From an uncultured Actinomycetes bacterium (GTDB lineage: Bacteria; Actinomycetota; Humimicrobiia; Humimicrobiales; Humimicrobiaceae): a stretch of 64,000 bases of DNA. Made by a program: the position numbers and the translations under genes. The DNA lies in contig CAWKAO010000003.1 of the NCBI GenBank assembly GCA_963847665.1, positions 85,453 to 149,452 on the forward strand. Direction: 5' to 3'. Shown here in pieces: positions 21,021-40,795 of the stretch (positions are counted from its first letter, which is position 1; each line of letters opens with the position of its first letter). The notes under the pieces are model-generated. The model saw only the letters and a list, made by a program, of their open reading frames with translations. It ran no database searches and had not been told where the DNA came from.

Positions 21021-22250
21021 ATGAAAAAAATAATGATACTTGGCGCTGGAGATTTCCAGGTCCCCTTGATCAAAGAAGCAAAAAAAATGGGCCTGAACGT
21101 GATCGTTATAGGTCCAAAGGGAGAATATCCGGGGTTTGAACTCGCAGACCAGAAATACTACCTTGATGTAAGAGACAGGGAAAAGATACTGGAATTAGCA
21201 AAAAATAACCATATTGACGGTATAGCCACAGACCAAACGGACTTACCTGTCAGGACTGTGGCATATATCGCTGAAAAATTAGGTTTATATGGAATAGGTT
21301 CAGACACCGCAAATCTATTTTCAGACAAATACCTTATGAGGGAAAAATGCAGAAGTCTGGGTCTACCGGTTTTGAATTATGGACTTTTTAATGATATAAG
21401 CTCCGCAACGAAATATTGTGAAAAATACGGTTTTCCGAAGGTCATAAAACCTGTTGATAACCAGGGAAGCAGAGGGGTTTTTAAAATATATAACATTGAT
21501 GATCTTGAAAAATTTTTTGTACAGGCACAGAATTATTCTTCAAATAACTCTGTCCTTATCGAGGAGTTTATAGATGGTTGGGAATTTGTAGTGGATAGCC
21601 TGACTATAAATCATGAATATAAAAACCTCATAATAGGTGATTCACATCTCTTTAAAATAAGAAATATGTTTATTCCTAAAAAAAGATTATTCCCTACGAT
21701 TGTCGGTAAAGAAACTCAAGATCAAGTCCTTGAAATGGACAGAAAAATAATAAGGGGGTATGGTCTAAGAAATGGGATCACTTTTGCTGAATACATCTGG
21801 GATAAAAAAACCAATAAAATATATTTACTGGAAATAGGGGCCAGAGGACAGGGTGTTTACATATCTTCTGACATAATCCCTGAATTTACCGGATTAAATG
21901 TTAACAGATTTATTTTAAATACGGCGATAAGAAATTCTTATAAAGTCGTGTTGAGTATCAACAAAAAAATATCTGCAGGTTACATGGCTTTTTATCTTCC
22001 CGAAGGAATTGTGACAGATATATCTGGTATAAAAAAACTAAATAAAATTGATGGAGTTATCGGCCATAACTTATATTCAATCAAAAAAAATCAGCAAATT
22101 AGATCTATCGATGATAAATCTGCAAGAAAGACTATAGCTCTTAAGGCTTATAATAGAAAAGAGCTTGATATTTTAATAAATAGAGTTAAATCTATTTTAA
22201 CTATAAAAGTAAAAACACAAAAAGGTTTAAGCTCAATAGTATGGGATTGA
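21021..22250 (+). CDS. ATP-grasp domain carboxylate-amine ligase
   Basis: 409 aa. Pre-ATP-grasp Rossmann N-terminus 'KIMILGAGDFQVPLIKEAKKMGLNVIVIG' followed by an ATP-grasp core ('KPVDNQGSRGVFKI', 'IEEFIDGWEF'). Confidence 0.75.
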   Translation: MKKIMILGAGDFQVPLIKEAKKMGLNVIVIGPKGEYPGFELADQKYYLDVRDREKILELAKNNHIDGIATDQTDLPVRTVAYIAEKLGLYGIGSDTANLFSDKYLMREKCRSLGLPVLNYGLFNDISSATKYCEKYGFPKVIKPVDNQGSRGVFKIYNIDDLEKFFVQAQNYSSNNSVLIEEFIDGWEFVVDSLTINHEYKNLIIGDSHLFKIRNMFIPKKRLFPTIVGKETQDQVLEMDRKIIRGYGLRNGITFAEYIWDKKTNKIYLLEIGARGQGVYISSDIIPEFTGLNVNRFILNTAIRNSYKVVLSINKKISAGYMAFYLPEGIVTDISGIKKLNKIDGVIGHNLYSIKKNQQIRSIDDKSARKTIALKAYNRKELDILINRVKSILTIKVKTQKGLSSIVWD

Positions 22251-22562
22251 TTAAAATAGCATAAACGATCTTTATATTTAATTATAAATCTTATGGTTTT
22301 TAAAGTTTTCCTTAAAAATAACAAATTAAACATATTTTTAATCCTTGTCTATCTTGTTTTACCGTTTATTTTTTTTGAAGGCAGCTTCAGGTTAAACACT
22401 CTTATACAGGGTTTTGCAGATACCAATAACTCACAGATCCCCATTCTTTTACTGAAGATTAATACTATCAAAGCATTACAGTTTCCGTTCTGAAATCCTT
22501 ATGAATTAAACGGGTTTCCATTTTTTGCTAATATTCAGTCTGGTATTTTCTATCCAGTCACA

Positions 22563-24722
22563 TTGGTATTGGGATTAATATTTCCACTCATAACTGCTTA
22601 TAATCTGACAGTATTTCTCAGCTATTCACTTGCAGGTATTTTTATGTACCTCTTTTTAAATGAATATAAATTGGAGAAAGCAGCTAGTTTTACAGCGGGT
22701 CTTATTTTTATGTTCAGCGGTTCACTGATCGCACATAAAAGCCACCTAGTGTTACTCAATACAGTAATCTGGTTACCACTAATTCTGCTTTTCCTGGAGA
22801 AATTTTTCAGATCAAAGAGATTTGAGTTTCTACTTTTAGCATCTATTGTTTACAGCATAGCTTTTTTTGGAGGGGCAATTCATACATTCCTTATCATTTC
22901 TTTGATTTTATTGATTTTTATTGTTTTTAAGGTATTTTTTTCGGACTACGGTAGCAATTATTATTTCCTTTATTCACTTATTATTTTCATAATAGGATTT
23001 TTAATAGTTCTTGCACAGGCACTACCGGCAATCGAGCTTGTATCACTAGCACGAAGTGAAAAACTTTCATATGAGGGATTCACGCTCAATTCATACAATC
23101 CTAAAATGGCTGTCACTTTATTCTTCCCTTATATTTTTGGTTTTAAGCATAATTTGACCAGTGCTTTTTATTATCCCCACTGGTTTGGTTATGATGAAGT
23201 TGGTGAAGTACTTCGTTACTTTGGTATTTTTACCATTCCAGTTTTTATATTTGGTTTCTTCAAAAAAGACAAAAATAAATATTTATGGTTCTTTTTATTG
23301 TTTATTTCGATATTCCTCTTAACCGGTAAATATAATCCACTTTATAAGATAGTATATTATATACCTGTTTTGAATCTATTCCATTTTCCTGCACGCGATT
23401 GGTTGGAATTTAGCTTCGCCTTTGCCATTATCTGTGGATTTGGTTTCAATGACCTGGTCAAAGCCGATAATAAAAAATTTAAAAACATTATATCAGGAAT
23501 TATAATATTCTTTACCTTTGTACTGGCATCATTTTCAGTATTCTATTTCCTGTTTAAATATAGTCTAAAAGATGAGATATCGGGTTTTTTCAGCAGTTTT
23601 TTAAAAAAGGAATTCTTAAGTGAAAGCATAGATATATCAAACTACGCAGTATATATGCCCCTTATTATAATTGGTACTCTAATAGTATTTTTGATCATTT
23701 TCCTATATAAAAGAAATAAAATAACATATGCCCTGCTTATAATATTTATTTTTTTGGACCTTTTATCAGTCGGCAGGGTATATGATGATAATACTAAAAA
23801 CATCATTTTAAATAAATCCGATTATGAAGATGGATTCATATATAAAGAAAACAAGGAAGAATCATTCAGAGTCTTTGTAATAGATGAGATACCCGAAAAG
23901 GATCTGTTTAAACCCAATATGAATGTACAATTTGGCCTGGAAAGTATTGACGGTTACGAGCCGTTATTTTTAAATGATTATTCTGATATGTTTATGAAAA
24001 AATTTATAAATTATGGCTTGATATGGAGTGAAGATTATAAAAAATACTTAATCAATAATAATCTGCTTTCAGTCTCAAACTGCAAATACATAGCTTTGAG
24101 TAAAGAGCACCTGAATGATTATATAAATCATATTAGGGAACAATCAGGTGGAAGTGATAGTGGATTAGAAGATTATGAGATTATTTACGAAGCAAATAGC
24201 AGTATAATACTGGAAAATAAGAAGTATCAGCCAAGGTTTTATTTTGCTGGAAAACTTATAAATGTCCAGAACATAGATGAGGCAAAAGATATAATCTGGG
24301 ATGATAAGGCTGGCGATGTAAAGTTCGATCCTTCATCAGATGTTATTGCCGAAAACATCAATTTTGAAAATACATCCTTTGAAGCACAGAACAACAGGCT
24401 GGAAATAATATCCAGCAAAAACAACAGTATTGAATTGGATATATCTGCACAGGAAAATTCATTTCTTGTATTTTCCGATACTTTTTACCCCGGGTGGAGA
24501 GCTTATGTGGATGGAAAAGAGACAGAGATCTACAGGACAAACGGTCTCTTTAAAGGAATATATATACCTGCAGGCAAACACATGATAGTTTTTAATTTTA
24601 TGCCCAGCCATTTCATTTTATACAGTACGATAAGTCTAATAAGTTTTTCAGGATGTATTTTAACGATAATAATATTAATTGCCAGAAGGAGGAGAAAAAG
24701 TATTTCTATTTCAGGACAATGA
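22563..24722 (+). CDS. YfhO-family GT-C glycosyltransferase (glycopolymer glycosylation type). The N-terminus is probably incomplete.
   Basis: Polytopic membrane protein with the YfhO C-terminal domain 'FYPGWRAYVDGKETEIYRTNGLFKGIYIPAGKHMIVFNF'. The same frame is open upstream from 22293 except for a single TGA at 22491-22493. Confidence 0.7.
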   Translation: MVLGLIFPLITAYNLTVFLSYSLAGIFMYLFLNEYKLEKAASFTAGLIFMFSGSLIAHKSHLVLLNTVIWLPLILLFLEKFFRSKRFEFLLLASIVYSIAFFGGAIHTFLIISLILLIFIVFKVFFSDYGSNYYFLYSLIIFIIGFLIVLAQALPAIELVSLARSEKLSYEGFTLNSYNPKMAVTLFFPYIFGFKHNLTSAFYYPHWFGYDEVGEVLRYFGIFTIPVFIFGFFKKDKNKYLWFFLLFISIFLLTGKYNPLYKIVYYIPVLNLFHFPARDWLEFSFAFAIICGFGFNDLVKADNKKFKNIISGIIIFFTFVLASFSVFYFLFKYSLKDEISGFFSSFLKKEFLSESIDISNYAVYMPLIIIGTLIVFLIIFLYKRNKITYALLIIFIFLDLLSVGRVYDDNTKNIILNKSDYEDGFIYKENKEESFRVFVIDEIPEKDLFKPNMNVQFGLESIDGYEPLFLNDYSDMFMKKFINYGLIWSEDYKKYLINNNLLSVSNCKYIALSKEHLNDYINHIREQSGGSDSGLEDYEIIYEANSSIILENKKYQPRFYFAGKLINVQNIDEAKDIIWDDKAGDVKFDPSSDVIAENINFENTSFEAQNNRLEIISSKNNSIELDISAQENSFLVFSDTFYPGWRAYVDGKETEIYRTNGLFKGIYIPAGKHMIVFNFMPSHFILYSTISLISFSGCILTIIILIARRRRKSISISGQ

Positions 24723-25694
24723 TATTTTCTTTCTTTTACCAGTGAAGATAAATGGCAAGCCTACGATACCGGTTATTACACTCACAGAAAAAATATATAG
24801 TGAAAGTGCTGTTGCTGATTCTGCAGATAGTCCATATTGACCTAGGATTGAAATATATGATATCTCCCTTAACCCTATACCTGAAATAGAGATCGGTATC
24901 ACGGTTATAAACCACACTATACAACTTGAAATGCTTATATCAAAAAAGGATAACCTGATACCAATAGAATAAGCAATGAGATAATTAATTGCAAAAAAAA
25001 TAGTATGTATAACAAAACTTAAAAAAAAGAGCATAAATAAAAATCCGGGGATTTTTTAAATAAAACTTTATGATCTCATCAATCAGAATAAAAGTCTCCT
25101 TTATTTTAATAATGATCTTTTTATCCGTCTTCCATTTTTTAAGAATCCTTTTAATATCGCCCCTTTTAACAAATAATATCAACAGGATCGACAATATACA
25201 GATGGATAGAAAAATACACCAGACTATTAGTTTTATTTTTAATTGAAAAAAGGGCTCAGTGAGAAAGCAGCAACCCCTAGAATAAATAATGAAAGAAAAC
25301 CTATCGTACGGTCAAAAAAAATCGATAAAATATTCCTTGTCTTGTTATAAGAAGTGTCGCTTCCCACCCAGACAGCTTTTACAATATCCCCTCCAAGAGC
25401 CCCTGGCATAACAAGGTTAAAGGTCGAGGACATCATCATGTACCTGAAATAATCCCAATTACTTAACTGCCTGAGGTCATCTGTATTTACGAGCTTCCAC
25501 CTTATACCATTCAGCCAGACTCTTAAGATTGACATTAAAACAGAGACGGCCAGAATCCAAAAGGAGATTTTTTTTAACGTATTGAAAAGTATTCCAAAAT
25601 CAACCTTATAAATAAGGAAAACAACAGAAGCAGCTAATACCAGTATTCTCAAAAATATGAAAATCAGCTTTTTTGTTTTGCCCTGCATAACCAT
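24711..25694 (-). pseudogene. Flippase-like (LPG-synthase TM-region / UPF0104 family) membrane protein, split across three frames
   Basis: The N-terminal fragment (25239-25694, 'ILRVWLNGIRWKLV...PGALGGD') and C-terminal fragment (24711-25034) are bridged by a third-frame ORF (24985-25194). Same architecture as the intact paralog at 60234-61274. Confidence 0.5.
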
Positions 25695-26891: not shown

Positions 26892-27648
26892 TCATATCTC
26901 CAGATTATTATAAAGCTTTTTCCAGAGTTTCATAAATTCCACTGTTTCTGGCATCCTTGGTATTTCCAATGAATTTTGCATAAATAGCCTGATTTTTGCG
27001 GGTATCTGTGAAAGAACCATTATTTTATTTCCAAGTATGATTGACTCCTGTATATTATGTGTAATAAAAACAATCGTTGTCTCAGTTTTCTGCCATATTT
27101 CGATCAGTTCATTTTGAAGGGTATTACGGGTCTGTGCATCTAGTGCCCCAAATGGTTCATCCATCAATAGGATTTTAGGTTTTATAGCAAATGCTCTTGC
27201 AATCGCCACTCTCTGACGCATTCCACCTGAAAGCTGGCGTGGATAAGCATTTTTAAATCCTGATAATTTTACCATCTCCAGAAAATGCAGGGCTATTTCC
27301 AATCTCTCTGCTTTTTTTAACTTCCTGAATTTAAGGTTTAGGGGATAAATTATATTCTCAAGAACTGTCTTCCAGTGAAAAAGTTGATCATAACCCTGGA
27401 AAACCATTATCCTGTCAGGTCCTGGTTTGTTTACAGGTATTGCCCTCGACTTTAATATTGCCTTCGTCTTTTTTTTCAAAGCAGCTTATACATCTTAGTA
27501 AAGTGGTCTTGCCACAACCTGATGGTCCCAGTACAGTCAGGAAGTCGCCATATTCAAGAGCAAGCGATACGCCATTTAGTACAACTAATGTCTTGTTGTT
27601 TATGGTGAACTTCTTTTTTAGATCTTCTATTTCAAGTACAAATCCCAT
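26892..27648 (-). pseudogene. ABC transporter ATP-binding protein (NitT/TauT family, SsuB/TauB-like) with a frameshift
   Basis: The Walker A fragment (27415-27648, 'GPSGCGKTT') and the Q-loop/signature/Walker B fragment (26892-27479, 'LSGGMRQRVAIARA', 'ILLMDEPFGALD') overlap in different frames. The junction is near 27440, where a 1-nt indel converts 'KVEG|IPVNKPGPDRIMVFQ'. Confidence 0.6.
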
Positions 27649-28437
27649 TCAATCAGAGATCCCCCATTTTATAATGGTCCTTTTTTCAACCTGTTTCATC
27701 AAAACTTCTTCGATCATTATTCCAATAATCACTATTACAAAAAGACCTGCAAATACGTCGGGTATTTCAAGGAAATACCTTTTCTGATATATATACCATC
27801 CCAGTCCACCTATCAGACCAGTAGCTCCAAATACCATTTCAGCCCCCACCAGTGCCCTCCAGCTCCTGGACCATGCTATTTTTAGACCTGAAAAAATATG
27901 AGGGAAAGCATTGGGTATCATCACTGAAAAAACAAGATGTAATTCTGACATGCCCAGACTCCTGCCCAATTCTATCTGCGTTTTAGGTACCGTGCGAAAT
28001 CCTGCAATTGAATTTACAATCACCGGCCAAATAACAGAATGGACGATGATTATTATTATTGCTTTTGCTCCCAACCCGACAATAAGCATTACTATCGGTA
28101 AAAGCGCAATACCGGGAAGTGGGTGCATTATGGATATTACCAGGTCAAGGATATGCGCAAAACTTTTATTGACCATATAAAATGCTGTCAGGATGAAAGC
28201 AGCGATCATACCGATCGCAATACCAGTAAATATTAGATACAAGGAATAGAGCGTATACTTTATGATCTCGCCTGAAATGATATTTTTCCACAATGCAACA
28301 AAAATAATAGATACGGGGGGTATAAGATTTGTTGAAGAAATAACAAACCTGGCCAGAAGTTCCCAAATTAAAAATACTGAAGCCAAAAATCCAAGCTTTA
28401 TAAATATTCCGGAGTATTTTTTCCTAAATGAAACCAT
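27649..28437 (-). CDS. ABC transporter permease (NitT/TauT family, SsuC/TauC-like)
   Basis: 262 aa, 6 TM segments, with the EAA-like loop 'ELGRSLGMSELHLVFSVMIPNAFPHI'. Confidence 0.8.
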   Translation of the reverse strand: MVSFRKKYSGIFIKLGFLASVFLIWELLARFVISSTNLIPPVSIIFVALWKNIISGEIIKYTLYSLYLIFTGIAIGMIAAFILTAFYMVNKSFAHILDLVISIMHPLPGIALLPIVMLIVGLGAKAIIIIIVHSVIWPVIVNSIAGFRTVPKTQIELGRSLGMSELHLVFSVMIPNAFPHIFSGLKIAWSRSWRALVGAEMVFGATGLIGGLGWYIYQKRYFLEIPDVFAGLFVIVIIGIMIEEVLMKQVEKRTIIKWGISD

Positions 28438-28485
28438 TCCAAGAATTCATTTTCTTCAAATATAGCCTGATAATAACGTATTAAT

Positions 28486-29463
28486 TCAATTTGCTTTCGA
28501 AGGATCAAGGTTATCCCAGATAAGTTCCGAGACATCTGTGGTTGTCTTCTGGACATAATCCGAGCTTTTCATAAAATCCAGAAACTTCAACATACCTTCT
28601 GGATTTTTAGAAAAAACCACTCCAGGCCATGTCAATTGCTTATATACTTCTTCACTTTCAAGGTCCATATCTTCTGCAAGCAATTTTGCTGCTTCTTCTG
28701 GATTTTCATTTATCCAATTTATTGAGTCATCAAGAGCTGAATCAATCGCTTTATAAAGGGAAGGGTTGCTGTTTTTAAATTTTTCAGTGCTGATGACAAC
28801 TAAAAAAGTAAATTGGGAGCCAAAGCAATCTTTTTCAGCATCAAGTACCTGATGTATGCTCTTATCTTCAAGCTCCATAAAAATATAGGGAGGTGATGTA
28901 AAATGAGCATCTATCTCTATCTTATTGATAAGAGCATTTGCTGCGTCTGGATGTGCCATCGCGACAATCTGATTATCAAGAGCTTTTGGGTCACCAAGCT
29001 GTTGTTTACATGCCATAGATAGGAGGATATGCTGGATACTTCCCGGCCCGGGTAGGGCTATCTTCATTTCTGGCTTTATATCATTGAGTGTCTTTATTTC
29101 TTCGTGATATGTCTGTAAACCAAGCGGCATCTTACATAGGGCTCCTAATACCTTAACGCCCAGATCTTTATTCCAGGATATTAAAAAAGGTGGAACACCC
29201 ATACTGCCGATATCGACTGCTCCGGATGCTATTGCTTCATTTATCGTCCCGCCCGATCCTAACTGGACCCATTCCACCTCAGCTCCCTCATAATATTTTT
29301 CAATAAGGTTTTTCTTTTGCATTATCATAAGAGGAGCATACCCCAGTCCGAATTGTTGAGCTATTACTACTTTTTGTGATTCCTGGGCAGCAGACTTGCA
29401 TCCCGGTAAAACAAAGATTAATATAAAAAAAATAACTAAAAAAATTATAGAATATTTCCTCAC
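28486..29463 (-). CDS. ABC transporter substrate-binding lipoprotein (NMT1/SsuA/TauA-like)
   Basis: Signal peptide with lipobox 'LPGC'. Periplasmic-binding-protein type II fold features. Confidence 0.7.
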   Translation of the reverse strand: MRKYSIIFLVIFFILIFVLPGCKSAAQESQKVVIAQQFGLGYAPLMIMQKKNLIEKYYEGAEVEWVQLGSGGTINEAIASGAVDIGSMGVPPFLISWNKDLGVKVLGALCKMPLGLQTYHEEIKTLNDIKPEMKIALPGPGSIQHILLSMACKQQLGDPKALDNQIVAMAHPDAANALINKIEIDAHFTSPPYIFMELEDKSIHQVLDAEKDCFGSQFTFLVVISTEKFKNSNPSLYKAIDSALDDSINWINENPEEAAKLLAEDMDLESEEVYKQLTWPGVVFSKNPEGMLKFLDFMKSSDYVQKTTTDVSELIWDNLDPSKAN

Positions 29464-29685: not shown

Positions 29686-30357
29686 TTGGGGTCAGTAGAT
29701 ATATTGGGATTCAGTCCAGGTTTTATCAGTATGGTAATTACTGTGCTTATAAAATGCTACGGCAAGGATCTGAACATCCGAATAATAAAAAATATTGCCA
29801 TTGAGGGAAATATCCCTTACAAAATATCCGGACCTGCTTATGATACGATAATGCACACTGAATGGGACGCGGGACACGTCTACAATCGAAAAAATTTTCT
29901 TGGTGTCGGTAATGTATTATCAAAAAAAACAGTATTTGATTTTTTTTATAAAAACTATTCACTGGATTTCAAAATGTATTGCAATATTATTCATCCAGGT
30001 GCAGATATCGCAGAAAATATAAAAATAGGATTTGGAAATTTTCTTAATTATGGTGTAACTATTGGCCCGTTTTCTGAAATAGGTAATTTCGTCACTTTTA
30101 ACAGACACGTCGGTATTGGTCACCATACTCAGATATCGGATTTTTGTGTAATAAATCCAGGGGTCAATATTGCAGGTTTTTGTGAAATTGGAGAGGGTTC
30201 GTCTATAGGTATGGGTTCAAACATTATAGATGGAATAAAAATCGGTAAAAACGTTATAATCGGCGCGGGTTCACTAGTAAATAAGGACATAGAAGATAAT
30301 GTTGTAGCATATGGAATTCCCGCAAAAACCATCAGGGTAAATGACCAAATAAAGTAA
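29686..30357 (+). CDS. Sugar N/O-acetyltransferase of the NeuD/PglD/WeeI family (left-handed beta-helix)
   Basis: N-terminal alpha/beta domain followed by hexapeptide repeats: 'IGEGSSIGMGSNIIDGIKIGKNVIIGAGSLVNKDIEDNVVAYGIPAK'. Confidence 0.7.
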   Translation: MGSVDILGFSPGFISMVITVLIKCYGKDLNIRIIKNIAIEGNIPYKISGPAYDTIMHTEWDAGHVYNRKNFLGVGNVLSKKTVFDFFYKNYSLDFKMYCNIIHPGADIAENIKIGFGNFLNYGVTIGPFSEIGNFVTFNRHVGIGHHTQISDFCVINPGVNIAGFCEIGEGSSIGMGSNIIDGIKIGKNVIIGAGSLVNKDIEDNVVAYGIPAKTIRVNDQIK

Positions 30358-30386
30358 AAATTTTTATCTTAAATTGAATATCAGAA

Positions 30387-31220
30387 ATGTCTAAACTAAT
30401 AATAAATTTTGCTCCTACAGGTATGAAGCCAACGAAAGACTGGACCCCTCATGTGCCAATAACACCAGATGAAATAATAGAGCAGGTGCACGAGGCATAT
30501 GATCTGGGCATAACTATTGTACACCTGCATGCAAGAGACAGCCAGACTGGAAAGCCGGATTATAGAGCTTTTATCTATGAAAAAATTATCAGTGGCATAA
30601 GAAAACACTGTAAAGATTTGATTATCAGCCTTTCAACAAGCGGCAGGTCTTTTTCAGAGTTCGAAAAAAGATCAGAGGTATTGCAGCTAAAACCTGATTT
30701 AGCGTCACTAACAATGTCATCACTGAATTTTCTTCATGATTCTCATATGAACGATCCTGAAATGATAAATAAATTAGCTTGTAGGATGAATGAATTAGGA
30801 GTACACCCCGAGATCGAATGTTTTGATAGTGGGATGGTAAATTATGCCAAATACATGATAAGTAAAAACATCCTGAAACCACCTCTTTATTGGAACCTTT
30901 TGTTTGGAAACATTTTTACTGCCCAGCCTGATCTGGCAAATATAGGCATTACAGTAAGGGATCTTCCCCCGGACTCTATTTATGCCTTTGCTGGTCTGGG
31001 AGCTTCTCAACTTAAAGTATCTACATATGCTATTGCTTCAGGTGCCCCAGGTGTCAGGATAGGGATAGAGGACAATGTGTATTACGATGCTAAAAAATCT
31101 TTGTTTGCATCAAACTTCATGCTGGTAAAAAGAATCCACCAGATCTCTGAGATTTTTGAAAGAGAAATCATGAAACCTTCAGAATTCGGAGCAATGGGAT
31201 TTTATAATTCAAAAAAATGA
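30387..31220 (+). CDS. BKACE-family enzyme (3-keto-5-aminohexanoate cleavage enzyme-like, DUF849)
   Basis: 'LIINFAPTGMKPTKDWTPHVPITPDEIIEQVHEAYDLGITIVHLHARD' is the characteristic BKACE TIM-barrel N-terminus with the metal-binding H-x-H. Confidence 0.65.
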   Translation: MSKLIINFAPTGMKPTKDWTPHVPITPDEIIEQVHEAYDLGITIVHLHARDSQTGKPDYRAFIYEKIISGIRKHCKDLIISLSTSGRSFSEFEKRSEVLQLKPDLASLTMSSLNFLHDSHMNDPEMINKLACRMNELGVHPEIECFDSGMVNYAKYMISKNILKPPLYWNLLFGNIFTAQPDLANIGITVRDLPPDSIYAFAGLGASQLKVSTYAIASGAPGVRIGIEDNVYYDAKKSLFASNFMLVKRIHQISEIFEREIMKPSEFGAMGFYNSKK

Positions 31221-33229
31221 AACTTTTTTATCGTTCAAGTCCTTATAAGTATATTATACTGGCAATTTTAATAAACCTTCTTTTGTTCTCACTATTTTTT
31301 TGTTTTATTACACCGAGATATCAGTCAAACGATGACAGTACAATGGAAGGGATCGCTTCAGGTATAAGGACAGGACAGCCTTCTGAATACCTGGTTTTCA
31401 TTGACATATTAATAGGAAAATTGCTTGTTTTTTTGTATAGCAACCTTATAAATATAAACTGGTACCCGGTTTTATTTTATTTACTGCATTTCATATCAAT
31501 GTCAATAATGTGTTTTTGCCTGCTTTTAAGAAAAAAGTTTTTACCGGGACTTGCCTTTTATTTGCTTATCTTTGCATTTTTTGAATTGTTTCTGCTTACA
31601 AATATACAGTTTACTACAACTTCATTTGTTTCTGCTATATCAGGTGTAATATTATTTTTGTCATTTCTTGATTCCAGGGGCTCCAGGTTCTATATCGCAA
31701 CAGTTATAAGTATTTTTTTATTTATAATCTCAGAATTTATAAGACACTATATGTCTTTCCTGGTACTCGGACTTTTTTCTATTTTGTTATTATTTAAGTT
31801 CATTAAAAAACCGGGGCTTAAAATACCAGTTTTTCTGATAATAACAGCTGTTCTTTTTACTTTGATTTATTTCCACAATATTAACTACTACCAGAAAGAT
31901 CCTAAATGGGCTTTTTATATCCAGTATAATAAGCTTAGACCCGAAATCAGTGATTATCCGCAAAAAAAATATAGTGAAAGTACAAAGGATGTTTACAGGA
32001 TTGTGGGTTGGAGTGAAAATGATGTCAAAATGTATAAATCCTGGTTTTTTAGTGATCTTGAATTGTATTCCCTTGAAAAAGTCCAATATATTGTAGACAG
32101 CATCAGTAATGATAACGGGCCAAAAGAGACATTTGATGTGTGGAAGAAGGCATTTAATGATCTGAATTTGAAAATCAGGATTTTTACAATATTTTTTTTA
32201 ATAGTTCTGATTATTGAAGCAATAAAAAACAGGAACAAATATCTTTTATTTACGACAATACCCCCTTTTATAATATCTTTATACTTTTCATATACCAACA
32301 GGTTGCCCAACAGATTATTTATACCACTAATATTTTTTACCATCCTCACATCCGCTTTTTTTAAAAGTGATTTTGTTTTCCTGACTGCACTAAAAAGTAA
32401 GAAAAAGACATTTATGCTTATATCACTAGCAGTCTGTATTATCATATTCTCTTCAATTTTTATTACCACTTCAATCGCAAGCAGGACAAACTTTGAAAAA
32501 CAGGAAGAATTTAATGAAAAAATAAGCAGGATGAAAGAACATGACTTTATATATGTCAGATGGGGTGCTGCGCCATTGCATGATAAAAAAATTTCATTTA
32601 CCATCCCGGAAAATCTTAAAGGTCTCAAGTATATACAGCAGGGATGGTTGCAGCACAGCCCGATATACAATGAGATACTACTTAAATATTCAATTGAAAA
32701 TATCTATACAGATATAATCCTAAGGAATGATATCAGGGTCTTATGTACCAAGGATCAGGGTAAATTATTAAAAATATTTATTGAAGAGCACTATGGTGTC
32801 TATATTGAAAGTAGTATCGATTCGAATTTTAATGGGGGTTACAATATAACAAGTTTTTACATTCCTGACGGTCCTTTAAGCCTTCTTTTTAAAAGGGCAT
32901 ATTTCTACAAATATGGTAAAGGTGCAAGTAATGATGAAGCTTTAAAATATTATAAATTACTTCAAACAGGAGGCCTTCGATCGGATGCAATCGGCATTGA
33001 AATAAAAAAAATACTTCTAAGTGAAGGCTCGCTGCTCGAAAGTAAAAGTGATAAAGAATTTTTAATAGCATTGTATGCTGTGTTCTTTGATAGAAAACCT
33101 GATATTACAGGACAGGTCATGTGGTTACAGAAATTAAGTAACGGCTACTCACGCTCAGATATTATTGATTCTTTTCTGGCATCGGTTGAATTTCAAAAAA
33201 AATATAAAGATAGCCTGGATACTTTGTGA
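31217..33229 (+). CDS. Polytopic membrane protein (GT-C-like N-terminal region) with a C-terminal DUF4214 domain
   Basis: About 11 TM segments, acidic motif 'QSNDD' in the first extracytoplasmic loop. C-terminal 'FLIALYAVFFDRKPDITGQVMWLQKLSNGYSRSDIIDSFLASVEFQKKY' matches the DUF4214 consensus. Overlaps the BKACE gene by 4 nt. Confidence 0.5.
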   Translation: MKLFYRSSPYKYIILAILINLLLFSLFFCFITPRYQSNDDSTMEGIASGIRTGQPSEYLVFIDILIGKLLVFLYSNLININWYPVLFYLLHFISMSIMCFCLLLRKKFLPGLAFYLLIFAFFELFLLTNIQFTTTSFVSAISGVILFLSFLDSRGSRFYIATVISIFLFIISEFIRHYMSFLVLGLFSILLLFKFIKKPGLKIPVFLIITAVLFTLIYFHNINYYQKDPKWAFYIQYNKLRPEISDYPQKKYSESTKDVYRIVGWSENDVKMYKSWFFSDLELYSLEKVQYIVDSISNDNGPKETFDVWKKAFNDLNLKIRIFTIFFLIVLIIEAIKNRNKYLLFTTIPPFIISLYFSYTNRLPNRLFIPLIFFTILTSAFFKSDFVFLTALKSKKKTFMLISLAVCIIIFSSIFITTSIASRTNFEKQEEFNEKISRMKEHDFIYVRWGAAPLHDKKISFTIPENLKGLKYIQQGWLQHSPIYNEILLKYSIENIYTDIILRNDIRVLCTKDQGKLLKIFIEEHYGVYIESSIDSNFNGGYNITSFYIPDGPLSLLFKRAYFYKYGKGASNDEALKYYKLLQTGGLRSDAIGIEIKKILLSEGSLLESKSDKEFLIALYAVFFDRKPDITGQVMWLQKLSNGYSRSDIIDSFLASVEFQKKYKDSLDTL

Positions 33230-33323: not shown

Positions 33324-34529
33324 TTAAATACTATTTTTGTCATCTTTAAAAAAACTTTTTATCACCTTTATTATCCTGTCCAGGTCTTCTTTATTTAAAT
33401 CATAAAAAAGCGGTAGTCTTAATATGCGATCCGATACATCTTCAGTTACAGGAAAGTCACCTGGTCTGTAACCCAACTTCGCTCCCATAGGGGATAAGTG
33501 AAGCGGCAAAAAATGGAATACAGCAATGATGTTGCTTCTTTTAAAATGATCCATCAGATCATTTCTTGTTTTTAGATCATTTAATAATATATAAAAAATA
33601 TGGCTGTTATGAGTGCAGTTATCGGGTATTACAGGTAGTCTTAAAAGTCCTTTTTTTTGAAATATTTCAAGATTTTCATAATAATGATTCCAGATATAAG
33701 ACCTTTTTTTATTTATATTATAAATTTTTTCAAATTGAGCATATAGAAAAGCAGAAAGCACCTCTGAGGGAAGGAATGATGAACCAATATCCACCCAGCT
33801 ATATTTATCGACTTCACCCCTGAAAAATTTGCTCCTGTTCGTACCCTTCTCTCTTATTATCTCTGCTCTCTCAAAAAAACTTTCATCATTTAACAAAAGT
33901 GCTCCACCCTCACCGCAAATTACATTTTTAGTCTCATGAAAGCTATAACAGCCTAGATTTCCAATACTGCCGAGATAACTATCCTTATATTTTGCTTCTA
34001 TGGCATGGGCAGCATCTTCAATAAGGATAAGGTTATAGTTTCTTGCAATTTGTACTATCTTATCCATTTCACAGGAGACACCTGCATAGTGGATCAGGAC
34101 AATAGCCCTGGTAAACGGGTTTATTGCTTCTTCAATTTTGTCTTCATCGATATTTAAAGTATCTTCCCTGATTTCTGCAAACCTTATGGTCGCATTTCTT
34201 ATGTAAAATGAGTTTGCAGCAGAAACAAAATTAAATGAAGGCATTATGACTTCATCTTCCTTTTTAATGCCAGCAAGTATTGCTGTCATATCCAGGGCAC
34301 TTGAGCATGACGTGGTCAGCAAGGCTTTTTTTACCCCATATCTTGCCTGGATAAAATCATGGCACTTTGTGGTGAAATCCCCGTCCCCGCTTATTTTTCC
34401 GCTTTCAACAGCCTGCTTTATATAGGAAAGCTCATTTCCGACTATTGAAGGTTTATTAAACGGGATCTTTGCGGTTTGCTTTTTTTCTGTTTCCTTCAAT
34501 ATATTTATTTTATTAATGTTCACTGTCAC
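33324..34529 (-). CDS. DegT/DnrJ/EryC1/StrS-family PLP-dependent sugar aminotransferase (ArnB/PglE-like)
   Basis: 'ALLTTSCSSALDMTAILAGIKKEDEVIMPSFNFVSAANSF' and 'YSFHETKNVICGEGGALL', which includes the PLP-lysine region. Confidence 0.85.
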   Translation of the reverse strand: MTVNINKINILKETEKKQTAKIPFNKPSIVGNELSYIKQAVESGKISGDGDFTTKCHDFIQARYGVKKALLTTSCSSALDMTAILAGIKKEDEVIMPSFNFVSAANSFYIRNATIRFAEIREDTLNIDEDKIEEAINPFTRAIVLIHYAGVSCEMDKIVQIARNYNLILIEDAAHAIEAKYKDSYLGSIGNLGCYSFHETKNVICGEGGALLLNDESFFERAEIIREKGTNRSKFFRGEVDKYSWVDIGSSFLPSEVLSAFLYAQFEKIYNINKKRSYIWNHYYENLEIFQKKGLLRLPVIPDNCTHNSHIFYILLNDLKTRNDLMDHFKRSNIIAVFHFLPLHLSPMGAKLGYRPGDFPVTEDVSDRILRLPLFYDLNKEDLDRIIKVIKSFFKDDKNSI

Positions 34530-35454
34530 TATTTATATTGATTGTATCTCTTATGACATACTGAGGCTGTTTATTCTGTGACATAAAAATCCTTCCAACA
34601 TATTCACCTATTAAGCCTACTGAGATCAGCTGTATTCCCGAAAAGAAAAGGATAGCAACAATTGTCGAAGTCCAACCTGTAACAAGAACCGAATCTAACA
34701 TTTTTCTTATCAGTAATATTAATGCGATTATAAAACCTGCTGCAGCACATAATAAACCAAAAAATAATGCGATCCTTAAAGGTTTTACTGAAAAGTTAGT
34801 AAATCCGTTAAACCATAGCCGCAATAATTTAATGAAACTGTAATTCGACTTTCCATGTGCTCTTTTTTTATGCTCTATGTTTACCACTCCTATATTGCTT
34901 GTAATTCTTAAAACAAGACCAGGCAGGTAGGGATATGGTCCCTGGTATTCCAGTATCTCTGTAGCAAGGTATTTTCTAATTACAAAATAACTTGAAGTTT
35001 TTAAATTTCTTGGCTTTTTTAACAGGATATTTGCCATAACAGCATTGATGGTACTGCCAAATTTTCTGAAAATGTTGTGTTTTTTATTAATATAATTTGC
35101 ATATATGATATCATAGCCTTCATCTAACTTTTTTATAAGTTTCCAGATCTCTTCAGGAGGAGTCTGGAGATCATCATCCATAAAAACTGCAACTTCGCCC
35201 TGTATAAACTTTAAACCTGCGATCATTGCATTGTGCTGGCCAAAATTTCTGGAAAGGTTTACAAGTTTGATAGAGTTGTATGATTGTGCTAACTTTAAGC
35301 ACCTGCTGTAACTTGAATCAGTACTCCCGTCGTTCACAAGAATTATTTCATAAGAAACCTTTTCATCTAATTCCCTTAGAAGTCTACCAACGACTTCATC
35401 AATTGTGTTTTCTGAATTATAAACCGGTATGATTATGGATAACATAAAAGACAT
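34513..35454 (-). CDS. Polyprenyl-phosphate sugar synthase, GT2 (GtrB/ArnC/DPM1-like) with two C-terminal TM helices
   Basis: 'MSFMLSIIIPVYNSENTI...ILVNDGSTDSS...VFMDDDLQTPPEEI' plus a C-terminal TM pair. The ORF is open to 35586, but the GT2 consensus starts at the Met at 35454. Overlaps the aminotransferase by 17 nt. Confidence 0.8.
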   Translation of the reverse strand: MSFMLSIIIPVYNSENTIDEVVGRLLRELDEKVSYEIILVNDGSTDSSYSRCLKLAQSYNSIKLVNLSRNFGQHNAMIAGLKFIQGEVAVFMDDDLQTPPEEIWKLIKKLDEGYDIIYANYINKKHNIFRKFGSTINAVMANILLKKPRNLKTSSYFVIRKYLATEILEYQGPYPYLPGLVLRITSNIGVVNIEHKKRAHGKSNYSFIKLLRLWFNGFTNFSVKPLRIALFFGLLCAAAGFIIALILLIRKMLDSVLVTGWTSTIVAILFFSGIQLISVGLIGEYVGRIFMSQNKQPQYVIRDTININSDSEH

Positions 35455-35694
35455 AAAAATATTCTTTCTATTTATGTTTATTAATACTTCGGCAGAAATT
35501 TTAATTACTCTTATTTTAGACATTATATAATAATTATCCATATTTTTTAGTGCTAATAATGATATTAAAGGAAGTATTCTTACCATTTATGTTAAGAATA
35601 CATGCTGATATAATGAGACTGCCAACAGTTACCCAGTAAATATCACTTGCCGAAGCTGGAAAAAAGAACAGTTAAGCAAGATTTATAAATTTAT

Positions 35695-37334
35695 TTGATA
35701 TTTAAAAGTATGTATTTTTTTAGTTCTATCAGAAGTTTTGCAGACAGTAAATATAAGTTGATCATAGTACTTTTTTTCATTATCTTCTTCATAATTGGTA
35801 TATTATCGGTAAGTGATTATGGGATTTCAACAGATGAAGGAGTCCAGCGTGATTTAGGCAATAATGCCTTAAATCTTGTTCTTAAAAATGATAAGGCCAT
35901 ATTTGAATATGAAAATAAGTACCATGGTACTGGTTTTACACTACCCCTAACCATCCTGGTGAAAAGCTTAAATATTAAGAATTTAAGGACTATTTTTTTA
36001 ATCAGGCATTATTTTACTTTTTTATTATTCTACATCTCAGTTATATTCTTCTACTTACTTTGCAGGAAATATTTTTAAGGACTGGAAACTTGGACTGCTT
36101 GGAGGCATTTTTTTAGTCCTTTCACCAAGAATATTTGCAGATTCATTTTACAACCCAAAAGACCTTCCTTTTTTATCAGCTTTTATTGTTTCTATTTTTA
36201 CTCTTAGCAGGTTTCTTGAGACTAAAAATATAAAATTTGCATTCTTACACGGTTTTGCTACAGGATTTGCTACAAGTATCAGGATAATAGGTATCATCAT
36301 TGTCTTTTTTACTTTTCTTTTTTTTATTTTTGATCTGATCCAGATAAAAAAACAGAAAAAAACCATAAATTCATCGCACATCTCCAATGTAATAATAAAT
36401 CTTTTAATATATCTATTTATTATGATAACTATTTTTCTTCTTTTTATGCCTGCACTGATTCCAAACACTATAAATAATTTTATTGGTGCCATAAAGCTTA
36501 TGTCAGACTATCCACACTCAAAAATAGGTCTTTACATGGGAAATATCATTTACGATACCAACCTTCCCTGGCATTATTTGCCTGTAAATATAGCAATAAT
36601 GACACCTATAATTTACACAGTATTATTTCTTTCAGGTTTAATATATTTTTTCAGCCGTTTCAGAAAAAATCTGGATACTTTTTATACCGAAAACAAATAT
36701 ATCATTATTGCTATTTTGTGGTTTTTTATTCCTGATGTTTTCCCAGATATTACTGAGCTCCAACCTGTATAACGGATGGAGGCAGATGTATTTTATCTAT
36801 CCAGCTTTATTGATCATCACACTGATCGGTATTAAATTTTTATTTGATTTCTTTAAAAAAAAGTTGAGTATCAAGAAATATAATGTAGTTGCTACAATTA
36901 TTACCTGTATATTAATCATTAATATAGCTTTTATTGCACAACTAATGATACGGCAGCATCCATACCAATATGTTTATTATAATATACTTGCAGGGAGAAA
37001 CCTGGAAGAGGTAAAGGAAAAGTATCCACTTGATTACTGGGGATTATCTTTCAAAGATGGGCTTGAATACATTCTAAGGACTGATAGCAGGGAAAAGATA
37101 ACTTATTATAACGGAGCCGGGCCAACAAGCTATTCTCAGCTTCTTCTGGATAAACAAGACAGTAAAAGATTAGTTTACGTCAATGATATCGATAAAGCCG
37201 ATTATTATTTAGATAATTATAAAAATATGGATTCTGAATATTACAAACCTTTTAACGGTTTTAGTCTCGAGAAAAAAGTCTTCAGTCTAATAGTAGATAG
37301 CGGAGAAATATTAACTGTTTATAAACTGAAATAG
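35695..37334 (+). pseudogene. Decayed paralog of the ~540-aa GT-C-fold membrane glycosyltransferase (GtrC-type)
   Basis: Three consecutive frames carry the colinear homologue of 43662-45311. A +1 shift sits at ~36072 in a T5 run ('CRKYF|KDWKLG' vs paralog 'CKKIFKDWKFG'). A second shift at ~36745 is a non-homopolymer 2-nt indel ('WFFIP|VFSQILLSSNLYNGW' is restored if 'at' is removed). Confidence 0.7.
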
Positions 37335-38487: not shown

Positions 38488-38580
38488 AAAAAAATAAATT
38501 TAATAGAATTAATAAATAAAATATAATAAAATTTCAGAGCTAAATTATATTATAAAATCATCATTTATATAAATAGAAAA

Positions 38581-39901
38581 TGAATCCGGATTTGTTTTAC
38601 GACCAGCTTATAAAAAAAGAAACAAGATATAGCTGTAGTAGGGCTCGGCTATGTCGGTCTTCCATTGCTTATCGAACTTTCCAGATATTTTGATGTCATC
38701 GGCTTTGATTTAAACAGGCAACGAATATCGGAATTGAGGGAAAATCACGACAAGGACAGGAATGTAAGCATTGAAGAACTTACAGGTATTAAATGTAAAT
38801 ATACTGCCGACGTATAAGATCTTAATCTGGCTAACTTCTTTATAATCGCAGTACCTACTCCCATAGATACTGATAAAAACCCTGACATTACACTCTTAAG
38901 GGAGGCGACAATTACTGCTGGTGAGAATATGCCGTCTGGCTCTATCGTTGTCTATGAATCAACTGTATATCCTGGTGTCACTGAAGAAATCTGCATTCCT
39001 TTACTTGAGGAACATTCAAATCTAAAAAGTGGGCGGGACTTTTTTGTCGGTTACTCGCCCGAAAGGGTCAACCCTGGGGACAGGCAGCACACCCTTAAAA
39101 ATATACAGAAAGTCATATCTGCACAGGATGATGATTCTCTGGAAGTAATATCAAAAGTCTACAATAAAATTGTACCTGCTGGTGTTTTTAAGGCTTCAAG
39201 CATAAAAGTCGCAGAAGCCGCCAAAGTCATTGAAAACACCCAGAGAGATCTTAATATAGCTCTTATCAATGAACTTGCTATTATTTTTTCTAAAATGCGA
39301 TATCGATACAAGTGAGGTCCTTGAGGCAGCATCGACTAAATGGAACTTTATTAAATTTTATCCGGGCCTTGTCGGAGGGCATTGTATTGGAGTGGACCCA
39401 TACTACCTTACTTACAAAGCAAAAAAAATAGGATACCAGCCGGATGTGATACTTGCAGGCAGGAAAATAAATGATGGGATGGGATTATTTATTGGTCAGG
39501 AAATAATTAAAAACCTGGAAACAACCTACAAGGATATTAAAGGATCAAAAGCTATTATCTTCGGAATTACTTTTAAAGAGAACGTATCAGACATCAGAAA
39601 TTCCAGGGTGACTGATATTTATGATCACCTAAAGGTAAATGGTATAGATGCTCTTATATATGATCCTATTGCTAATAAAAATGATGTAAAAAAACATTAT
39701 GGAATAGATCTCATCGAGTTTGAAGAAATTAAAGGGGCAGATGCATTTATTTTTTGTGTATCACATAATGAGTTTAAAAATATTGATCTTAAAAGCTTAA
39801 AAGAAAAACAGAACAAAGAAAATCCTTTTATTTTTGATATAAAATGGATATTTAGAAAAGAAGATATAGAAAAGCTTGGTTACAGATACTGGAGAGTATA
39901 A
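38581..39901 (+). pseudogene. UDP-N-acetylhexosamine 6-dehydrogenase (TviB/WbpO/Cap5O-like), multiply disrupted
   Basis: (1) Frameshift in an A7 run at 38611-38617 between 'MNPDLFYDQLIKK' and 'DIAVVGLGYVGLPLLIEL'. (2) In-frame TAA at 38815-38817 ('[21 protein letters not shown]'). (3) Frameshift at ~39285-39300 between 'NELAIIF..' and '[16 protein letters not shown]...GGHCIGVDPYYL'. Confidence 0.75.
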
Positions 39902-40795
39902 ATGAGGCTTAATGAACTTAAGTTTAACAAGAAAATAAAAATACTTGTTACAGGCTGCGCAGGTTTTATCGGCAGCAATATAATGGAATTCCTACTCAGT
40001 AGGGATATGGCTGTTATCGGCCTAGATGATTTTTCTACAGGAACAAAAGATAATATGGATGAAGTTATCAATTCAATTTCTGAAGTCAATGAAAATCCGG
40101 ATTTCAAGTTTATCCAGGGAGATATAAGAGATTATAATTCATGTATTGCGGCGACAAAAAGTACAGACATTGTACTTCACCATGCTGCACTTGGTTCAGT
40201 TCAACGCTCAATTGAAAATCCCGCTGATTCAAGTTCTGTAAATATCGAAGGCACCCTTAATTTGTTAAGAGCTTCAACAGAAAACAAAGTCAAAAAATTT
40301 ATATATGCATCTTCATCATCTGTTTATGGTGATACAGCAATACTGCCAAAAGTCGAAGACATGCCTCCCAATCCAAAATCCATTTATGCAGTGACTAAAC
40401 TAACAGCAGAGTATTATTGCCGCCTGTATTTTGAAATGTTTGGTTTAATGACAATATCATTGAGATATTTTAATGTATTTGGAAGACGTCAAAACCCTGG
40501 TTCCATTTATTCAGCGGTCATACCAAAATTTTTAAAGAAGATTTCAGAGAACCAGCAACCTGAGGTATATGGAGATGGAAATCAGAGCAGGGATTTTACA
40601 TATATTGATAATGTAATATTTGCCAATTATCTTGCTATGACTTCGGAGAATGACAGATTGTATGGCAATTTTTACAATATCGCATGCGCAAAGAGGATCA
40701 GCCTCAATGAAATCATAGGTTTTATTTCAAAGACAAAGGGCATCCAATGTTACACCGGTCTATCTTCCAGAAAGAAAAGGAGATGTAAGGCATAG
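39902..40795 (+). CDS. UDP-sugar 4-epimerase of the WbpP/TviC type (extended SDR), with two frameshifts in the last ~50 codons
   Basis: 'KILVTGCAGFIGSNIMEFLL' NAD motif. The true C-terminus ('PVYLPERKGDVRHSLAGIEKAKK' then 'ILGYYPLVCFDEGFKRTCGSILNK*') is reached only after frame changes at ~40740 and in an A6 run at ~40825. The stop is at 40897-40899. Confidence 0.7.
   Translation: MRLNELKFNKKIKILVTGCAGFIGSNIMEFLLSRDMAVIGLDDFSTGTKDNMDEVINSISEVNENPDFKFIQGDIRDYNSCIAATKSTDIVLHHAALGSVQRSIENPADSSSVNIEGTLNLLRASTENKVKKFIYASSSSVYGDTAILPKVEDMPPNPKSIYAVTKLTAEYYCRLYFEMFGLMTISLRYFNVFGRRQNPGSIYSAVIPKFLKKISENQQPEVYGDGNQSRDFTYIDNVIFANYLAMTSENDRLYGNFYNIACAKRISLNEIIGFISKTKGIQCYTGLSSRKKRRCKA

Follow-up and report, generated by a model that had tools for sequence, protein, structure and literature searches.

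A β-keto acid cleavage enzyme paired with a hexapeptide N-acyltransferase in a bacterial surface-glycan locus: a candidate source of non-acetyl acyl groups for amino sugars

The gene pair and its locus

The pair of genes described here lies in a 64,000-nucleotide (nt) stretch of DNA from an uncultured bacterium of the Actinomycetes (Humimicrobiaceae; GenBank assembly GCA_963847665.1, contig CAWKAO010000003.1, positions 85,453 to 149,452 of the forward strand). The whole stretch is referred to as the window, and positions are counted from its first letter. One gene codes for an N-acyltransferase of the hexapeptide-repeat type, here called HEX, and the other for a member of the β-keto acid cleavage enzymes (BKACE; DUF849). 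Both open reading frames (ORFs) were found where an earlier note on this DNA had placed them, with the BKACE gene downstream of the HEX gene, as claimed there, after an intergenic gap of 29 nt. The comparisons presented below point to a functional unit of the two proteins, in which BKACE may provide the acyl donor for HEX.

The surroundings of the pair within the window form a large surface-glycan locus, which contains genes for Wzm/Wzt, two Wzy_C proteins, Bac_transf, many glycosyltransferases of families GT1 and GT2, a Wzx-like protein, RmlC-like protein, epimerases, NTP_transferase and YfhO. The G+C content is about 33%, and the nearest relatives belong to Bacteroidota. Five consecutive genes, coding for HEX, BKACE and proteins of 670, 401 and 357 amino acid residues, occur in unchanged order in three independent short-read assemblies, in which the BKACE protein is identical; the proteins have the same lengths (223, 277, 670, 401 and 357 residues) there and in the window. 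A scan for sigma-70 promoters and terminators gave 28 sites against 20.6 expected in this AT-rich region and is uninformative.

The BKACE protein and the HEX acyltransferase

The earlier note had recognised a DUF849/BKACE signature at the N-terminus. The assignment to the family was right but understated, since the entire protein is a BKACE: the hidden Markov model comparison proposed there matched Pfam profile PF05853 with an E-value of 8.2e-76 and 255.4 bits (gathering cut-off 24.8), over profile positions 1-268 of 274. The best matches in the PDB are 3no5, 3fa5, 3chv and the lysine-fermentation enzyme Kce (2y7d), with E-values from 1e-39 to 1e-36; a cis-epoxysuccinate hydrolase (5zmy) is also matched with an E-value of 4e-7. 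In the alignment to Kce 2y7d the Zn ligands His46, His48 and Glu228 and the catalytic residues Glu144, Arg224 and Asp229 are all retained, and these six residues are invariant across 16 members of the clade to which the protein belongs. The glutamate equivalent to Glu144 (E143 in Kce, E171 in PdKce) is identified as the catalytic base in PMC11961710; the arginine and the aspartate are Arg226 and Asp231 in the numbering of Kce. The clade carries its own signature, composed of the motifs NF.PTGM.PTK, S.SGR, SLTLSSLNF and Y(W/F)N..FGN.

The score against the NCBIfam equivalog model of Kce is 222.5 bits, below the cut-off of 382, and that against NF053568 (3-oxoadipate:acetyl-CoA acetyltransferase; CoA, coenzyme A) is 198.3 bits, below the cut-off of 350; the cut-off for the dioxohexanoate enzyme is not reached either. 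Judged by its residues, the protein of the window looks active and falls into no equivalog class. In Kce, the 5-amino group of the substrate is held by Glu14 (PMC10470551). Because this glutamate is missing, the substrate should differ from that of Kce; the window protein has lysine at position 14. Of the top 120 homologues, 94 match the motif, and 80 of these have isoleucine or valine at this position; lysine or arginine is restricted to the subclade of the window protein (P0001-P0009, at least 67% identity). Lys14 was considered as a clade-wide sign of an anionic substrate, and this was rejected, as isoleucine or valine is found outside the subclade. The residues at position 14 suggest, though weakly, a neutral distal group in the substrates of the clade and a polar or anionic one in the subclade of the window.

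The HEX protein matches the Pfam Hexapep family with an E-value of 1.8e-14. Its nearest solved structures are PerB (4ea7, E-value 9e-19), VioB (7txp), the acetyltransferase PglB-ATD (4m98) and PglD (3bss). The alignment with PerB is free of gaps over HEX residues 99-215, and His146 of HEX aligns with the histidine that is replaced in the His-to-Asn mutant of PerB (4eaa). By these comparisons HEX resembles the N-acetyltransferases acting on the 4-amine of nucleotide sugars, with the putative catalytic histidine kept.

Conservation of the pair in genomes and viruses

The earlier note had asked whether BKACE and the NeuD/PglD-like acyltransferase occur together in other genomes. The adjacency is kept in well over 100 loci, which stem from several bacterial phyla and from viral contigs. 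In the following, the labels L001, L002 and so on designate the retrieved homologous loci, and the counts of adjacency are based on tblastn and on clustering of ORFs.

In a scan that started from BKACE and took one genome per species, 27 loci with BKACEs of 34-58% identity were retrieved. An acyltransferase directly adjoins BKACE in 22 of them, 18 times a hexapeptide protein and four times a protein of the GNAT family; two further loci end at a contig edge and were left out of the assessment. The 18 hexapeptide genes are on the same strand as BKACE at distances of 2-230 nt, and both gene orders are seen. They come from Saprospiraceae, Cytophagales, Gillisia, Cyclobacteriaceae, Chitinophagaceae, Prolixibacteraceae, Flavobacteriaceae, Lentisphaerota, Omnitrophota and Planctomycetota. 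The four loci with GNAT belong to Flavobacteriaceae (L021-L024: Flagellimonas, Algibacter and others), where at about positions 9990-11520 BKACE is followed by a GNAT of 213-221 residues. This two-gene unit is the sole conserved element of these loci and has differing neighbours. Genes for Nramp, a ComM-like protein, a topoisomerase and a metallophosphoesterase were seen among them. No NCBIfam family was matched by this GNAT.

The remaining three of the 27 loci have no acyltransferase: one is archaeal (41% identity), and the other two, L032 and L033, contain Kce-like proteins of 34% identity with the Kce motif GAELT. A class-III aminotransferase gene lies directly upstream of BKACE in L033 (1048-2322), and also in L025 (2-1222), an Anaerolineales locus with a BKACE of the clade type on a contig that is too short downstream. 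The aminotransferase of L033 is probably the counterpart of the 3-aminobutyryl-CoA transaminase that acts in lysine fermentation. A 514-residue ORF in L027 was a candidate for a fusion of BKACE with HEX and was rejected: Pfam finds only the hexapeptide part in it, BKACE being encoded in a different frame, and the two genes are neighbours without being fused.

The association holds when it is approached from the other side. Seven HEX homologues of 42-66% identity were looked up, one of them from Klosneuvirus KNV1, and all lie no more than one gene away from a BKACE; in one of these cases only a BKACE remnant is adjacent, and an intact BKACE is located 5 kb away. No close relative of HEX free of BKACE was found; P0185, one of the seven, which matches only over the C-terminal 57% and was chosen as a control, also adjoins a BKACE. 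The remnant, 29 residues long, follows HEX immediately (L007:867-953 and L008:877-963), while the intact BKACE and a PseH-like GNAT after it (L007:5938-7386) lie downstream between NeuB genes. The presence of a remnant together with an intact gene in this nonulosonic-acid locus suggests turnover of the cassette.

A scan of IMG/VR with the alignment of the clade gave at least 80 loci; the numbers below refer to the 80 matches listed, and the viral status is that assigned by IMG/VR. An acyltransferase stands beside BKACE in 78 of them (71 hexapeptide, 7 GNAT). The two others are one locus at a contig edge and one in which only an unassigned ORF of 110 residues was present. In 66 of the 71 hexapeptide pairs the gap is within about 100 nt, and often it is -13, -7 or +2 nt. 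At 90% identity these loci are grouped into 54 clusters, 48 with hexapeptide and 5 with GNAT partners. The contigs (L047-L126 and L127) are up to 335 kb long, and BKACE and the acyltransferase are often followed by a short DegT-like protein of about 200-212 residues. Genes resembling PhoH and dUTPase (recognised by eye), GT2s, WbqC, TylF-like methyltransferases and sulfotransferases were seen nearby. No BKACE homologue was detected in 50,697 records of cultured phages.

The giant virus Klosneuvirus KNV1 (KY684113.1; L040-L042) carries at L040:6001-9528 a HEX gene, a gene for 331 residues on the opposite strand, BKACE and a DegT aminotransferase. The cassette of the bacterial glycan loci recurs here.

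These data bear on the simplest objection, which is that the two genes are adjacent by chance and that BKACE is a catabolic enzyme of lysine, carnitine or aromatic degradation stranded in a glycan locus. The characterised BKACEs are indeed catabolic. However, an adjacency preserved across phyla and viruses contradicts chance, the Glu14 of Kce is absent, the three equivalog cut-offs of catabolic enzymes mentioned above are not reached, and the catabolic partner genes are not present in the window, where in place of a lysine-fermentation context the neighbours are glycan genes. We regard this explanation as extremely improbable. The earlier note had called a BKACE in a polysaccharide cluster atypical. 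This is correct relative to the literature, but in genomes the arrangement proves to be a common and mobile cassette.

Neighbouring genes

The genes adjacent to the pair that could take part in the same pathway are collected in Table 1. The start of the gene for the 670-residue protein overlaps the stop of BKACE by 4 nt, so that the two are translationally coupled. The genes for the WecE-type transaminase and GT2 are convergent with the operon of HEX, BKACE and the 670-residue protein.

Table 1. Genes of the pair and candidate members of the surrounding module (window positions)
Feature	Positions	Strand	Length	Basis or remark
HEX, left-handed β-helix N-acyltransferase of PglD/PerB/VioB (NeuD) type, TTG start	29686..30357	+	223 aa	Pfam Hexapep, PDB relatives
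BKACE (DUF849) enzyme of the acyltransferase-linked clade	30387..31220	+	277 aa	PF05853
Polytopic membrane protein with C-terminal DUF4214, predicted GT-C	31217..33229	+	670 aa	AlphaFold2 and Foldseek
WecE-type dTDP-4-amino-4,6-dideoxyhexose transaminase (DegT)	33324..34529	-	401 aa	NF008687, TIGR02379
GT2 of the polyprenyl-phosphate glycosyltransferase type (ArnC/PgfS-like)	34513..35586	-	357 aa	PF00535
Second membrane protein, GT-C-like, in three frame fragments	35695..37334	+		weak PMT_2 match; divergent from GT2
LPG_synthase_TM membrane protein with in-frame stop, possible module member (candidate flippase)	24711..25694	-		PF03706

In the 670-residue protein DUF4214 covers residues 610-662, while no Pfam model covers the membrane part. 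The family is rare, with 26 homologues found. An AlphaFold2 model built with 22 homologues has a mean predicted local distance difference score (pLDDT) of 87.7 and a predicted template modelling score (pTM) of 0.82. The best PDB matches of this model in Foldseek are ArnT (5ezm/5f15), PglB, ALG12, DPY19 and AglB, with E-values of 1.5e-4 to 2e-2 and modest template modelling (TM) scores of 0.3-0.5; ranks 1-13 are all glycosyltransferases of the GT-C fold, and the lower-ranked, weaker matches cover the C-terminal domain only. The residues Asp39 and Asp40 of a DD motif are invariant in the 22 homologues. The protein is therefore predicted, at the level of the fold, to be a GT-C glycosyltransferase similar to ArnT and PglB. 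Its homologues adjoin HEX and BKACE in L036-L038 and occupy a syntenic position in L039. The DUF4214 region (33044-33202) also gave local Foldseek matches (about 113 columns, target TM score about 0.5) to the phycobilisome linker PF00427.

The transaminase is assigned with scores of 568.8 bits to NF008687 (cut-off 375) and 538.3 bits to TIGR02379 (cut-off 434.85), and homologues of 48-56% identity adjoin BKACE and HEX in L012, L014-L016, L018 and L030. The GT2 protein is matched over the full length by PgfS (198.7 bits, cut-off 500) and ArnC (186.5 bits, cut-off 529), which indicates homology, both scores being below the equivalog level. It is kept next to BKACE and HEX in L001, L009-L012, L014-L016, L018, L030, L037 and L038. 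The second membrane gene consists of fragments of 127, 116 and 208 residues in different frames and corresponds to one 540-residue gene with a weak match to PF13231 in the sibling short-read contigs; PMT_2 proteins occur at the equivalent position in L009-L012, L016 and L018. The LPG_synthase_TM ORF is covered by a single tblastn high-scoring segment pair, with 51% identity over 316 residues, to an intact gene beside HEX and BKACE in L001, and members of this family are also present in L014, L015 and L039.

Clustering of the neighbours over all loci showed as recurrent partners DegT proteins, ArnC-like GT2s, membrane proteins of the GT-C type (PMT_2, the DUF4214 family and DUF6044), small ArnE/F-like EamA proteins, LPG_synthase_TM, WbqC, TylF-like methyltransferases and sulfotransferases. 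The third gene seen most often codes for a DegT protein, in its full-length or its short form; the latter, of about 200 residues, is found in 48 of the 80 viral loci listed. The DegT proteins beside the cassette are of several kinds (WecE-like, other types, DegT-FdtA fusions and short DegT), and so are the glycosyltransferase contexts, which comprise GT2 with GT-C, WecF-like GT56, Bac_transf, PglF/PglC-like genes and NeuB loci. Since the aminotransferases and glycosyltransferases vary from locus to locus and the pair of BKACE and acyltransferase is constant, the acylation step appears to be the constant element.

The WbqC-like family (PF08889) was observed beside or between BKACE and HEX in L012 (11561-12250), L016, L018, L034, L039 (8934-9686) and seven viral loci (for example, L118:1882-2583). 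These proteins may take part in the same pathway of modification.

The nature of these neighbours is relevant to the possibility that the pair acylates an amine other than a sugar (an amino acid, a polyamine or some other small molecule), and that it either came to lie in glycan loci secondarily or makes a product that is attached to the glycan later. The BKACE-GNAT pairs of Flavobacteriaceae, placed among unrelated housekeeping genes, could be understood in this way, as could the many viral loci that have neither full-length DegT nor GT2 within 6 kb. Against this, the hexapeptide partners resemble acetyltransferases of nucleotide-sugar 4-amines, DegT is the commonest third gene not only in the viral loci but also in many bacterial ones, and glycosyltransferases, WbqC and methyl- and sulfotransferases of the sugar type recur beside the pair. 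A non-sugar acceptor is thus considered improbable.

The module of the window resembles the Arn pathway in most respects, and an ArnD-like deacylase was not found in the window or in the annotated related loci. It could be supposed that the BKACE homologue fills this place as a Zn-dependent hydrolase, a counterpart of ArnD, NaxD or LgmC, which takes off the N-acyl group once the sugar is on the lipid carrier and exposes a free amine; the superfamily does include a hydrolase, the cis-epoxysuccinate enzyme. However, the full Claisen catalytic set, Glu144, Arg224 and Asp229, is invariant in the clade, and a soluble cytoplasmic TIM barrel is unlikely to act on a lipid-linked substrate. In addition, the pair is found in NeuB loci, beside WecF-like GT56, in non-glycan surroundings when the partner is a GNAT, and in viruses that have no GT2 or GT-C, where deacylation of a lipid-linked sugar would make no sense. 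Such a role is very unlikely.

Several other features of the locus were noted. An ABC transporter of the SsuA/NMT1 type, with a binding protein, a permease and a split ATPase (26892-29463, minus strand), is divergently adjacent to HEX. It was tried as a part of the module and rejected, being conserved solely in the sibling contigs of the same organism, and it is probably unrelated to the cassette. An ATP-grasp ligase (409 residues) adjoins a GT-C of the YfhO family (719 residues) at 21021-24722, and a further GT-C (PMT_2, 43662-45311) and PD40 β-propeller genes are located downstream. Several independent systems for the modification of glycans in the periplasm are present in the locus.

The genes at 35695-37334, 38578-40893, 26892-27648 and 24711-25694 are broken in the window and intact in the three short-read contigs. 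The ABC ATPase, split into two ORFs here, and LPG_synthase_TM, with its in-frame stop, are among those intact in the short-read contigs; UDP-glucose dehydrogenase has 439 residues there and 210 here, and the epimerase after it 331 and 297, respectively. The broken genes look like indel or base errors of the long-read assembly rather than real pseudogenes.

Proposed pathway

In the canonical BKACE reaction a β-keto acid, R-CO-CH2-COO-, and acetyl-CoA are converted to R-CO-SCoA and acetoacetate (10.1101/205583; bioRxiv 10.64898/2026.01.15.699783). Unusual acyl-CoAs can be made in this way, for example, formyl-CoA and glyceryl-CoA (PMC11961710; 10.1101/205583). Hexapeptide enzymes and GNATs are both users of acyl-CoA and the pairing is obligate; the simplest explanation is thus that BKACE makes the donor of its partner. 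The supply of an acyl donor had been put forward in the earlier note as one possibility, and it is the explanation that the sequence comparisons support best, since every partner is an acyltransferase that depends on CoA, with one or the other of two unrelated folds, and since the HEX subfamily is linked to BKACE wherever it was examined. The obligate pairing with BKACE also argues for a donor of HEX other than acetyl-CoA.

We propose, with a probability of roughly 0.55, that BKACE makes a non-acetyl acyl-CoA, that HEX transfers the acyl group to a dTDP-4-amino-4,6-dideoxyhexose, and that the product then enters an Arn-like polyprenyl-phosphate route. The Zn-dependent TIM barrel of BKACE would convert a free β-keto acid in the canonical direction, yielding an acyl-CoA which is absent from the normal pool or labile. 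HEX would move this acyl group onto the 4-amino group of the nucleotide sugar provided by the neighbouring WecE-type transaminase. The ArnC/PgfS-like GT2 would load the N-acylated sugar on undecaprenyl phosphate, and after flipping, the 670-residue GT-C, the PMT_2-like protein or both could transfer it to a periplasmic acceptor, which may be lipopolysaccharide (LPS), another glycan or a protein. A β-keto acid from general metabolism is favoured as the substrate, because the cassette, including its viral forms, has no gene for making a special one. Malonate semialdehyde as a source of formyl-CoA and oxaloacetate as a source of oxalyl-CoA may serve as examples, and a hydroxyacyl-CoA would be another; the conversion of malonate semialdehyde to formyl-CoA is described for another BKACE (PMC11961710).

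Several observations weigh against this proposal. The score of HEX against NCBIfam TIGR03570 (NeuD/PglB/VioB) is 134.1 bits, below the curated cut-off of 160.8, and covers residues 69-214 only, and the donor specificity of HEX is not readable from its sequence. The acetoacetate formed as a by-product has no obvious fate, and no conserved gene for the synthesis of a special β-keto acid was found in the cassette. No fusion of BKACE with HEX was found, and the metagenomic BKACE of L003, 70% identical to that of the window, has no acyltransferase neighbour. Finally, the position of Kce Tyr145 is occupied in the clade by phenylalanine, as it is in BsfD, a BKACE homologue of the flavophos cluster which acetylates and decarboxylates its substrate instead of releasing acyl-CoA (bioRxiv 10.64898/2026.01.15.699783).

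On the gene of L003 it may be added that it lies (244-2024) between two fragments, of 165 and 85 residues, of one amidohydrolase family, as if inserted there.

The likeness to BsfD leads to a different explanation for the pairing, in which HEX would use acetyl-CoA as ordinary N-acetyltransferases do, and another, non-canonical step of the same pathway would fall to the BKACE-like enzyme. This step could be a BsfD-like acetyl transfer with decarboxylation on a small β-keto acid, giving a substituent of the diketone or acetoacetyl type, or an action on an N-malonylated intermediate, and the gene linkage would then reflect sequential action and not the feeding of acyl-CoA. BsfD shows that divergent chemistry of BKACE homologues exists in biosynthetic clusters, and the lack of a conserved precursor-forming gene is consistent with such a step. 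However, the phenylalanine is not diagnostic, because it is also present in 3no5, 3fa5 and 3chv. In the structure of BKACE15 (PDB 9HNF) a single entry channel is filled after acetyl-CoA has bound (PMC11961710); if the enzymes of the clade are built in the same way, a substrate linked to a nucleotide sugar could hardly be accommodated. The constant partner, moreover, is a user of acyl-CoA of either fold, which is most simply accounted for by a shared thioester. This explanation is regarded as unlikely.

Beyond the window, and more tentatively than for the pathway itself, the pair could represent a widespread and previously unrecognised route of amino-sugar decoration, in which a non-standard, perhaps labile acyl-CoA is made on demand from a common β-keto acid and its acyl group is immediately placed on the sugar by a dedicated transferase. 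The cassette would then have spread among Bacteroidota and other phyla as well as phage-like elements and giant viruses. Antigenicity and recognition by phages and the immune system depend to a large extent on the N-acyl groups that 4-amino-6-deoxyhexoses, bacillosamine and nonulosonic acids carry, and many of the non-acetyl groups come from acyl donors of unexplained origin. If the proposal is correct, it would be the first biosynthetic role in glycans for the BKACE family, and the cassette would serve as a genomic marker by which non-acetyl N-acylated sugars could be recognised in Bacteroidota, Lentisphaerota, Omnitrophota, uncultured viruses and Klosneuvirus. Both proteins of the cassette are soluble and have about 25-30 kDa each; in glycoengineering they would serve as a compact two-enzyme tool, independent of ATP, with which unusual acyl groups could be made and transferred. 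If the acyl group is formyl, the cassette would be a CoA-dependent alternative to the folate-dependent N-formylation of the ArnA/VioF type.

Comparison with known systems

The protein of the window belongs over its full length to the same fold family as Kce and other BKACEs and shares with them the Zn ligands and catalytic residues. It differs from Kce by Lys14, by phenylalanine in place of Tyr145, by the signature of its own clade, and by a biosynthetic context, glycan or viral, rather than a catabolic one. With BsfD of the flavophos phosphonate cluster it has in common the recruitment of a BKACE-family enzyme into a biosynthetic cluster and the phenylalanine equivalent to Tyr145. However, BsfD contains an insertion of about 20 residues with an arginine for the phosphonate, yields a diketone and not an acyl-CoA, and has no acyltransferase partner.

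Among open-access papers no link of BKACE, DUF849 or Kce to glycan biosynthesis was found. The matches of the BKACE terms in the literature on Vibrio parahaemolyticus concern a metabolic gene of a pathogenicity island, and the consulted passages of the NetSyn study, which analysed the genomic context of 725 BKACEs, mostly from proteobacteria, mention no glycan context.

HEX shares with PerB, VioB, PglD and PglB-ATD the left-handed β-helix with an N-terminal domain, the conserved catalytic histidine and the neighbourhood of a DegT transaminase. It differs from them in remaining below the TIGR03570 cut-off and in that its homologues are paired with BKACE in every case examined. To our knowledge, such pairing is not a described feature of these characterised enzymes, which use acetyl-CoA.

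The Arn pathway (ArnA-B-C-D-E/F-T) has related lipid-linked aminosugar systems in Gtr, PgfS, FlmF/FlmK and Lgm. The module of the window is similar to it in the DegT transaminase, the proposed N-acylation before transfer, a GT2 homologous to ArnC though below the equivalog level, the predicted ArnT-like GT-C fold, and the small proteins resembling EamA or SMR that are present in the relatives. However, the transaminase is of the WecE type, acting on a dTDP-6-deoxyhexose, and is not an ArnB; the acylation would be carried out by HEX with BKACE; and the GT-C comes from a rare family for which there is no Pfam model. Neither the ArnA formyltransferase/decarboxylase nor the ArnD deformylase was found in the module of the window or in its relatives.

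A parallel to the proposed division of labour is the anthrose operon antABCD of Bacillus anthracis. This operon codes for the crotonase AntA, the DegT aminotransferase AntC and the hexapeptide N-acyltransferase AntD. AntD places a non-acetyl acyl group on dTDP-4-amino-4,6-dideoxyglucose, and AntA is a dedicated enzyme that tailors the acyl-CoA. By analogy, the cassette would share the logic of an acyl-CoA supplier combined with a DegT protein and a hexapeptide N-acyltransferase. The two systems differ in that the supplier here is a BKACE and not a crotonase, and in the downstream route, which in the window would be lipid-linked through GT2 and GT-C. A dedicated acyl-CoA supplier working with an amino-sugar N-acyltransferase is known from anthrose; what would be new is BKACE as the family of the supplier, which is unexpected, together with an unexpectedly wide distribution, which includes viruses.

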